35,930 nucleotides of DNA from a virus (IMGVR_UViG_2711768046_000005); one strand, 5' to 3'. Shown: positions 15,530-16,273, counted from the stretch's first letter. The notes: generated from the sequence alone by a model not told the origin. Numbers and translations are program-made.

Positions 15530-16273
15530 ATGGATAAATATCAAATCTGGGAAAATCAAAAAGACACCATCGCCCACCAAGAGTATTTAAAAATCTCCGA
15601 CACCAATTTACTTGGACATATGCATATTGCCAATTACGAAGTTGCCCAACATGAATTAAGCAAATTCAACTCCCCTGACATTGTTTCCCGTCATTCATTT
15701 AACAGAGACAAATTTAAAAAAGAACATTTAAACATATCAAGACACCTTTTCAATTATATATCTTCAGCATTATCATTTAGAGATTCAACGCGCAACCTAC
15801 TTAAAACAAAAGCATTAAATATTGCCGACATTAAAATCAAATCAGAGGCATTCATCAATCATGAATTCCGAAATAATCCAGTAATAAAATTAATGGAGGA
15901 CTTAAGAAACATCCTGACGCATCAAAACATGATCGCCCCATCAATATCATCATTCATGCACCTCCAAAGAAATATAAACATGCACGGCTTTTCATTTAAG
16001 ATTGAAAGAATCTTAAACAATGACAGAACCACCAAACAAACAAAAGAATATTTAATCTCACTAAAGCAAAAAAACTTATTCATTTTACCGATAATAGAAG
16101 AATACCAATACACGACTCTTAAGTATCAACACTGGCTTTTAGCAAGTATCTACACTGTTCATCAAGATACTTACCAAGAATACTGGAATGCGAGAAAAAA
16201 CATCATGAACGAATGGGGAGGAGACACTCAGCTAATACCTAAAGAGAGTGAGCTCACTTATTTAACCAGATAA
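15530..16273 (+). CDS. Cargo protein with HEPN-like Rx4H motif; candidate abortive-infection RNase at the orf30 position
   Basis: 247-aa ORF, very AT-rich and antisense to the late operons. AAGGA ribosome-binding site upstream. Motif R126-N-I-L-T-H131 (nt 15905..15922) fits the HEPN R-x4-6-H signature. No other recognisable motifs. Confidence 0.65.
   Translation: MDKYQIWENQKDTIAHQEYLKISDTNLLGHMHIANYEVAQHELSKFNSPDIVSRHSFNRDKFKKEHLNISRHLFNYISSALSFRDSTRNLLKTKALNIADIKIKSEAFINHEFRNNPVIKLMEDLRNILTHQNMIAPSISSFMHLQRNINMHGFSFKIERILNNDRTTKQTKEYLISLKQKNLFILPIIEEYQYTTLKYQHWLLASIYTVHQDTYQEYWNARKNIMNEWGGDTQLIPKESELTYLTR

Follow-up and report, generated by a model that had tools for sequence, protein, structure and literature searches.

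A stand-alone protein with an invariant Rx4H pair, encoded in the S-V slot of a P2-like prophage, is a candidate member of the HEPN superfamily

Introduction

What does a lone, AT-rich gene do between two late operons of a P2-like prophage, in antisense to both? The question is raised by IMGVR_UViG_2711768046_000005, a viral stretch of 35,930 nucleotides (the window, by which we mean this whole stretch), which is a P2-like prophage integrated beside yegQ/ogrK in E. coli and is identical to NZ_CP145671. Between the baseplate gene V (14811-15446, minus strand) and the tail-completion gene S (16478-16930, minus strand) lies an open reading frame (ORF) on the plus strand, at 15530..16273, which is called from an ATG start and encodes 247 amino acids. 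We refer to it as the cargo gene. A first-pass annotation had described it as an antisense ORF between the terminator on the S side and the V promoter, with a guanine-plus-cytosine (GC) content well below that of its neighbours. In the translated product it had noticed the string R126-N-I-L-T-H131, which fits the Rx4-6H signature of HEPN ribonucleases (RNases).

Both descriptions hold. The ORF call, a terminator scan and the GC profile agree on the arrangement, GC content, about 0.60 in the flanks, dropping to 0.32-0.34 within the ORF (per gene, 0.335 for the cargo gene, 0.597 for V and 0.536 for S), and the string is present, encoded by nucleotides 15905-15922. Slot and orientation are the same as for P2 orf30. 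We report here that the cargo protein belongs to an unannotated family in which this Arg and this His are invariant. With a confidence somewhat above even, we propose that it is a stand-alone HEPN-type (Rx4H) RNase, a prophage 'moron' that would guard the lysogen by abortive infection in a way analogous to HepS of the Salmonella prophage Gifsy-1. The features on which this account leans are the following.

15530..16273, plus strand: cargo gene; its product is predicted to be mostly alpha-helical with a small beta-hairpin and represents an unannotated Rx4H (HEPN-like) superfamily (ORF, homologs, ratio of nonsynonymous to synonymous substitution (dN/dS) 0.08-0.16, AlphaFold2 (AF2) model with a predicted local distance difference test score (pLDDT) of 95.9)
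15905..15922, plus strand: codons R126-N-I-L-T-H131, with the Rx4H dyad that is predicted to be catalytic and closes helix 117-131 at its C-terminal end
15632..15796, plus strand: codons N35 to R88, with the polar constellation of helix 1 and helix 2 (N35, N68, R71, N75, D85, R88)
15941..16000, plus strand: codons of beta-hairpin 138-157, the most variable structural element (secondary structure, column entropy)

Results

A protein family with an invariant Arg and His

The Rx4-6H motif is by itself uninformative, because shuffled versions of the cargo protein contain 1.8 matches to it on average. At least one match occurs in 85% of shuffles, and the real protein has three (R59, R126 and R147). 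The caution in the first-pass annotation, that one short motif is weak evidence, was well placed. As judged from the alignment of homologs, it is the conservation of R126 and H131, and not the presence of the motif, that exceeds chance.

A word-indexed search for homologs returned only 7 close clusters. An exhaustive profile search returned 329 representatives at an expectation value (E) ≤1e-3, that is at least 329 clusters at 50% identity, and these range over more than 10 bacterial phyla and the archaea. The alignment used below (A3) holds 119 members, mostly 15-25% identical to the query, and all conservation counts are taken from it. N75, R126 and H131 are its only invariant columns (119/119). 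Further conserved positions are listed here.

N35: 117/119
Position 68, E, N or D: 103/119 (E87, N10, D6)
R71: 109/119
D/E85: 105/119
R88: 112/119
N127: 99/119, with Q, H or D in most others
Y192: 114/119
W202: 114/119
H211: 97/119

A second string of similar appearance, RNINMH (R147 and H152; nucleotides 15968-15985), falls in the beta-hairpin and keeps its Arg in 6/119 and its His in 14/119 members; by this comparison, the RNxxxH string is a chance decoy. Column entropy is lowest in the motif helix (1.7 bits) and highest in the beta-hairpin 138-157 (3.2-3.5 bits), which is a candidate for a specificity or sensor surface. Two blocks are typical of the main clade, E-[IV]-x-R-L-L-H-N-F-L-A-S-A-x-[ST]-L-[VI]-D-H-T-R and F-[VI]-Q-D-L-R-N-Y-x-L-H-[KR]-x-[LI]-P, and the P2 clade forms a divergent branch of it.

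None of the family members carries a Pfam domain or an informative name. The family scans of the cargo protein gave PHROG 12680, of unknown function, as the sole match, and a literature search by RefSeq accessions and PHROG identifier returned no mention of the protein.

One sub-family of about 700 amino acids, which includes a protein of a Pantoea genome, carries the domain at the N-terminus, fused to a conserved extension of about 450 residues (examples are L040:7962-10055, L035:7959-10064 and L029:8001-10106; P0038, P0053, P0076 and others). The extension gave no match in Pfam, in PADLOC (ten fusions) or in the PDB; it may be a built-in sensor domain.

Predicted structure

The AF2 model computed from the 119 sequences is of high confidence (pLDDT 95.9, predicted template-modelling score 0.91) and mostly helical; a model computed from 7 close sequences was unusable (pLDDT 51). 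Helices are predicted at residues 14-44, 59-90, 99-113 (short), 117-131, 185-214 and 216-228. In the model, helix 117-131 ends with R126..H131 and gives way to a loop at 132-137, after which come the beta-hairpin (138-157), small helices and a short strand (182-184).

HEPN domains are four-helix up-down bundles composed of a pair of alpha-hairpins and carrying an insert from helix 2 to helix 3, and their Rx4-6H motif stands at the end of core helix 3, running into the loop to helix 4 (Anantharaman et al., 2013, PMC3710099). A polar residue (N, D or H) usually stands just after the motif Arg, and a conserved polar or acidic residue on helix 2 lies beside the motif; the domains act as metal-independent RNases that need both Arg and His, with the active site formed across the dimer (Anantharaman et al., 2013, PMC3710099). 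In the cargo family the Rx4H is invariant and the polar N127 follows its Arg in 99 of the 119 members. According to the model, R126-H131 would lie where helix 3 ends and extend into the loop, and the preceding long helix (59-90) carries E/N/D68, the invariant N75 and D/E85. The motif position fits HEPN, and the sequence in which the predicted elements follow one another and the residues on helix 2 would fit it too; the insert after the motif helix is atypical.

Tests of HEPN homology

Profile-profile comparison covered one HEPN family, PF18736 (pEK499_p136-like), represented by a profile of 64 sequences that was built from the prototype and whose members are all labelled PF18736. With hhalign a single match was obtained, at P=0.0088 and with the catalytic motifs in register (FVqDLRNYxLH on LIxxLRNSVAHF). 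This value was reached by 0/60 column-shuffled profiles, and the reversed profile gave 0.073. An extended alignment has four colinear blocks, namely N35/N3, N75/N44 (invariant in both), R126-H131/R96-H101 and Y192/Y145, with spacings of 51 vs 52 and 91 vs 93 residues in the cargo family and PF18736, respectively.

A number of results weigh against HEPN membership. The hhalign probability against PF18736 was only 4.6%. When the motif block was removed the comparison was not significant, the remaining P=0.017 being equalled by 5/60 shuffles and the C-terminal parts giving P=0.13, and domain-wide homology to PF18736 is therefore not claimed. The cargo protein has no match in Pfam, NCBIfam or PADLOC (PADLOC-DB v2), and PF18736 did not appear at E up to 10. 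Pfam searches with the 119 members (at E cutoffs of 0.01 and 10) and with 7 cluster consensus sequences gave no recurrent model, of HEPN or otherwise; a single member (1/119) matched pEK499_p136 (PF18736) at E=0.0057, which is at noise level, and PADLOC returned only scattered noise over the 119 members. Nothing was found when the profile was run against the whole set of PDB sequences, which includes HEPN structures, and the matches listed to TRF2, tropinone reductase and 14-3-3 were rejected as noise. Foldseek returned no neighbour of the model from the PDB or BFVD (E ≥0.1, template-modelling score <0.3). The hairpin and small-helix insert is placed between helices 3 and 4, whereas the canonical HEPN insert stands between 2 and 3. 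Finally, many neighbours of relatives, in 47 genome loci, are ordinary housekeeping genes.

The HEPN-like reading of the first-pass annotation stands in part. The invariant Rx4H, its position at a helix end and the defence-type contexts of relatives speak for it, and the empty Pfam, NCBIfam, PADLOC and Foldseek searches speak against it. Two of the checks that had been suggested there came out divided. The profile search matched motif on motif to PF18736, but Pfam was negative and the hhalign probability low; structure prediction gave a model that is confident and mostly helical and sets the dyad where a helix ends, but no Foldseek neighbour in either database. Taking these results together, we consider it likely, yet unproven, that the family belongs to the HEPN superfamily.

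The same results bear on the strongest competing explanation, a new helical enzyme family outside HEPN in which the R..H dyad would have arisen by convergence. Such a four-helix enzyme would possibly act not on RNA but on a nucleotide, NAD, lipid or protein-modification substrate, and it might still be a defence effector. Its constellation would consist of N35, R71, N75, D85, R88, R126-N127, H131, Y192, W202 and H211. A confident model that nevertheless finds no neighbour in the PDB or BFVD would suit this explanation, as would the empty Pfam, NCBIfam, PADLOC and PDB sequence searches with members or consensus sequences, the low hhalign probability, the loss of significance outside the motif block and the non-canonical insert after the motif helix. 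To these can be added about a dozen conserved polar or aromatic residues, which is above the HEPN minimum. On the other side stand the in-register motif match, with none of the shuffled profiles reaching its P value, and the fit of the model in element order and motif position. We regard a non-HEPN enzyme as unlikely, though to be taken seriously. In its boldest form, to which we give slightly less credence again, the protein would have a new helical fold with its own active site and would be a self-contained sensor-effector immune protein of bacteria and archaea, reading phage proteins by its hairpin; the fusions of about 700 amino acids would be a second architecture with a dedicated sensor, and the S-V junction a third, overlooked defence slot.

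Genomic contexts of relatives

Contexts were read for six distant members, for 47 genome loci and, in the search for a partner, for about 50 loci. The six distant members are found in the following surroundings; RM stands for restriction-modification and NTPase for nucleoside triphosphatase.

P0174: 23 bp downstream of an MmeI-type RM enzyme
P0160: SNase, SocA/Panacea and an Eco57I-type RM enzyme
P0170: DUF4011/MTES helicase-nuclease, with an nSTAND NTPase nearby
P0165: KAP NTPase, GIY-YIG nuclease and a type ISP RM enzyme
P0125: gene directly after the large terminase in a Firmicutes prophage
P0168: uninformative neighbourhood

Species-representative genomes yielded 69 loci, which come from Proteobacteria, Firmicutes, Cyanobacteria, Chloroflexi, Bacteroidota, Actinomycetota, Planctomycetes, Acidobacteria and archaea, and a further 23 family loci lie on viral contigs of IMG/VR. 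A profile search with the 10 closest sequences gave no confirmed locus in the species-representative genomes. Among 148 flanking genes (47 loci) each Pfam family occurred at most 3 times. Defence-type genes recur sporadically in these flanks (Septu PtuA/PtuB, reverse transcriptases, MADS components, AriA, DUF4238 and PIN), as raw counts with no background.

No partner ORF of at least 40 amino acids within 1.5 kb was common to the approximately 50 loci in an all-against-all BLAST, with the exception of three syntenic cyanobacterial loci. The absence of a partner antitoxin ORF, noted in the first-pass annotation, is therefore true for the window and extends to these independent loci. NTP_transf_2 was found in just 2/148 neighbours of relatives, and no MNT gene is adjacent to the ORF in the inserted segment that carries it (the cassette, described below), where searches also found no Rfam RNA and no tandem repeat. 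The family is thus taken to be a stand-alone module, and several of its members occupy prophage slots. It differs in this from the HepT/MNT HEPN toxins (PDB 7ae2 and 4nqf), which are always paired with an adenylylating MNT antitoxin; there is also no sequence similarity to these toxins, and the cargo protein is about 100 residues larger. The patchy distribution across phyla, together with an exchange of alleles described below, shows signs of a conflict gene.

Slot occupancy and alleles

Prevalence was counted in 5,426 complete E. coli genomes.

Gene S, which marks a P2-like prophage: 1,569 genomes
P2 orf30: 464 genomes
S-V cargo gene: 16 genomes

An empty S-V junction of 66 bp was found in 6/6 evenly sampled P2-like prophages of E. 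coli (L084-L089). The cargo gene is therefore rare and optional and its slot mostly empty. It is not core to P2-like phages, in keeping with the term cargo used in the first-pass annotation. The notion of the S-V slot as a richly diverse hotspot was rejected, all six sampled prophages being empty there; the slot has few alternative states (orf30, the S-V cargo gene, or empty) and is mostly unoccupied. The surveys of P2 hotspots consulted name the tin/old, Z/fun and tail-cI slots, not S-V (PMC9122126; PMC9519451; 10.1101/2024.10.15.618418), and a preprint from 2026 refers to defence loci 'within the late genes' and gives no more detail.

The gene resembles P2 orf30 in its slot, in its antisense orientation, in a start near the V activator site, in being non-essential and in its AT-richness; P2 orf30 is, however, 29 times commoner (464 vs 16 genomes). 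Homology of the two proteins was considered and rejected (BLASTP E=0.77). P2 Orf30 has long hydrophobic stretches at its N- and C-termini, suggesting a membrane protein.

Five cargo alleles, with protein identities of 99, 77, 59, 59 and 51%, were found in P2-like phages with diverged backbones, and all five occupy the S-V slot in one orientation. Between cassette alleles dN/dS is 0.16 and 0.08; purifying selection is thus acting on the cargo gene product, which is a real protein. One E. coli genome has a flanking V protein of 100% identity, but a cargo protein of only 77% (synonymous divergence dS 0.78), and the allele was therefore exchanged by recombination. GC content is 0.32-0.35 in all five alleles (window, L090, L091, L092, L013) despite divergence to 51%, between flanks of about 0.6. 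The AT-richness thus looks maintained rather than merely recent, and it might reflect H-NS silencing or a throttling of expression.

A 156-amino-acid relative, P0007, follows the 76% allele to about residue 115 and is wholly divergent thereafter; it looks like a frameshifted, probably inactivated copy.

The cassette and its regulatory elements

The cargo gene is part of an inserted segment with the following elements.

15448..16467, no strand: inserted AT-rich cassette of about 1,020 bp, in place of the 55-bp S-V spacer of 'empty' prophages (BLASTN and GC profile)
15471..15500, plus strand: sole candidate sigma-70 promoter for the cargo gene, -35 TCGATA, 18-nt spacer, -10 TATCAT (consensus scan)
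15493..15510, minus strand: perfect TGT-N12-ACA box, the consensus of the P2 late-promoter activator (Ogr), for the V operon promoter (read from sequence)
15517..15521, plus strand: Shine-Dalgarno sequence AAGGA, 8 nt 5' of the ATG (read from sequence)
16305..16327, minus strand: rho-independent terminator of the O to S late operon, a GC-rich hairpin with a T-run (terminator scan)
16328..16467, no strand: AT-rich non-coding spacer of 140 nt, from the terminator to the S stop codon (allele comparison)

In BLASTN comparisons with an empty junction (L084) and with P2 (L002), homology with the window ends at 15446/15447 and resumes at 16468/16476, from which the limits of the cassette and the replaced 55-bp spacer follow. 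Besides the ORF, the terminator and the 140-nt spacer, the cassette contains a V-promoter box of its own. The centre of the box lies 55 nt upstream of the V ATG, and the cargo gene starts 20 nt from the box; P2 has an equivalent annotated activator site beside orf30, and the box region is strongly conserved among cassette alleles. The Shine-Dalgarno region, GAAGGAA/GGGGGAA, is kept in 5/5 of these alleles. In the candidate promoter the -10 hexamer overlaps the Ogr box, and the matches of the scan did not exceed the chance number. Its hexamers are kept in the alleles, inseparably from the constraint on the V promoter. Upstream conservation was accordingly rejected as proof of a cargo promoter, because the V promoter uses the same bases. 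Since the candidate -10 lies within the Ogr box, the arrangement would allow P2 to silence the cargo gene during its own late phase.

This position lends some colour to the idea that the product serves the phage and has no role in host defence, be it as a factor of its own lytic cycle, in anti-defence, in superinfection exclusion or in lysogenic conversion without RNA cleavage. The gene sits among late morphogenesis genes with its start close to the Ogr-dependent V promoter box, the unrelated Orf30, which fills this slot in P2, is predicted to be a membrane protein, and another member of the family stands directly after a terminase gene. However, being antisense to both late operons, the cargo gene is not co-transcribed with them, and it is dispensable, as the empty junctions of the six sampled P2-like prophages indicate. 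Most family members are chromosomal and lie outside recognisable phages, several of them beside RM or defence genes, in bacteria and archaea, and the conserved polar constellation suggests an enzyme. A purely phage-serving accessory is on these grounds improbable.

On the other side of the ORF, the terminator lies 32 nt past the stop codon of the cargo gene, whose transcript may end there as well. Its hairpin differs between the window (GGCCGCGA/TCGCGGCC) and L090 (at about 1506-1528; GGCCACGA/TCGTGGCC) by a compensatory change of a G:C to an A:T pair, which supports a functional stem. The 140-nt spacer beyond it accompanies the 99% and 77% alleles (window, L090) and is missing from the 51-59% alleles; searches of 16328-16467 found no Rfam match, repeat or conserved small ORF.

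If the cassette encoded a type I or type III toxin, an antitoxin RNA would have to come from its non-coding DNA, either from this spacer or by antisense read-through from the S operon. An unexplained AT-rich spacer of about 140 nt that travels with the gene in two alleles, and converging late-operon transcription that could yield antisense RNA, would suit such a module. Yet there is no Rfam match and there are no tandem repeats of the ToxI type, the more distant alleles do without the spacer, a terminator stands between the S operon and the gene, and no conserved flanking element was found over the approximately 50 loci, a comparison of ORFs only. We hold an RNA-controlled toxin to be very improbable.

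The rarity (16 genomes), the AT-richness and the want of annotation might point to a degenerating ORF, or one with no function, that hitch-hikes in AT-rich DNA acquired horizontally. This idea is effectively refuted by the selection analysis (dN/dS 0.08-0.16 between alleles) and by full-length conservation with invariant residues from E. coli prophages to archaea, with one frameshifted copy only (P0007).

Other cargo slots of the window

Two further variable slots of this prophage are occupied.

8752-10086, plus strand: FRG-domain protein (RefSeq annotation) in the Z/fun cargo slot, flanked by the genes for tail sheath and tail-fibre assembly
25970-27037, 27034-28098 and 28091-29257, minus strand: three-gene operon of two Ser/Thr protein kinases and a PP2C phosphatase in the tin/old slot, from the portal gene to replication gene A

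The FRG-domain gene is antisense to the late genes, as is the S-V cargo gene. The kinase/phosphatase operon is a candidate kinase-based defence system.

Discussion

For the cargo protein as a stand-alone HEPN-type RNase, the following course of events can be proposed. The lysogen would make the protein from a promoter of the gene itself, in antisense to late operons that are silent, and the protein would rest as an inactive oligomer. In HEPN enzymes the active site normally arises when two Rx4-6H motifs are paired across a dimer. Something made by an infecting phage might then be sensed directly by the protein, the hypervariable hairpin 138-157 being the best candidate for this task. Activation would expose the R126/H131 dyad, aided by N75, R71, R88 and D85 of the neighbouring helix. 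RNA would be cut, the usual targets of HEPN enzymes being tRNA or mRNA, and translation and phage growth would stop. Past a stand-alone protein with a conserved Rx4H at a predicted helix end, every one of these steps is something that we infer by analogy, and this applies to HEPN homology, RNase activity, oligomeric latency, direct sensing, abortive infection and expression in the lysogen alike.

The analogy is drawn above all with HepS (STM14_3211), a solo HEPN abortive-infection protein of the Salmonella prophage Gifsy-1 with the motif R100-H105 (PMC13043305). HepS is a latent oligomer that is activated by a phage tail-tip protein and then cleaves tRNA anticodon loops (PMC13043305). Like HepS, the cargo protein is the product of a single prophage-borne gene, has an Rx4H motif and comes with no co-occurring partner or inhibitor. 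Both are distributed sporadically over distant bacteria, often on prophages, and were first recognised from a predicted structure and a motif. The first-pass annotation had argued that a toxin without an antitoxin would need an unusual mode of control. This no longer applies, since HepS is a solo HEPN protein and inactive by default (PMC13043305).

PF18736, the one HEPN family compared and the only one with detectable profile similarity here, offers a second point of reference. DLRNYxLH of the cargo family falls on its LRNSVAH, an invariant Asn precedes the Arg by 52 residues in PF18736 and by 51 in the cargo family, and an N-terminal NY and a C-terminal Y occur in both. PF18736 proteins are small stand-alone proteins of mobile elements and often have RM or Pgl genes nearby (PMC3710099), and the cargo family likewise consists of small stand-alone proteins on mobile elements, often near RM genes. 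They differ in length, with about 160 amino acids in PF18736 vs about 240 in the cargo family, and PF18736 is without the extra helix 99-113 and the hairpin and small helices at 138-184.

On plasmid pEK499 itself, the prototype pEK499_p136 (L083:41727-42227) is followed 12 nt later by a gene for a hypothetical protein of 257 amino acids (42240-43013), among VapBC modules. These two genes are possibly a two-gene unit.

The cargo family is best filed as a new, unannotated family among the solo HEPN-type defence nucleases, with moderately supported homology. If this is true, a widespread HEPN-type family has remained invisible to Pfam, NCBIfam and PADLOC v2, and the profile of alignment A3 could close this gap in annotation. 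The cargo protein would then be a second, independent case of the logic of HepS, in another phage lineage, in which one protein both senses and kills and no antitoxin is needed. The silence of solo HEPN proteins would thereby become comparable between lineages. For P2-like phages it would mean that defence-type cargo can be borne at the S-V (orf30) junction and, with candidate cargo at all three variable slots of this prophage, would lead to a compact model of layered prophage immunity.

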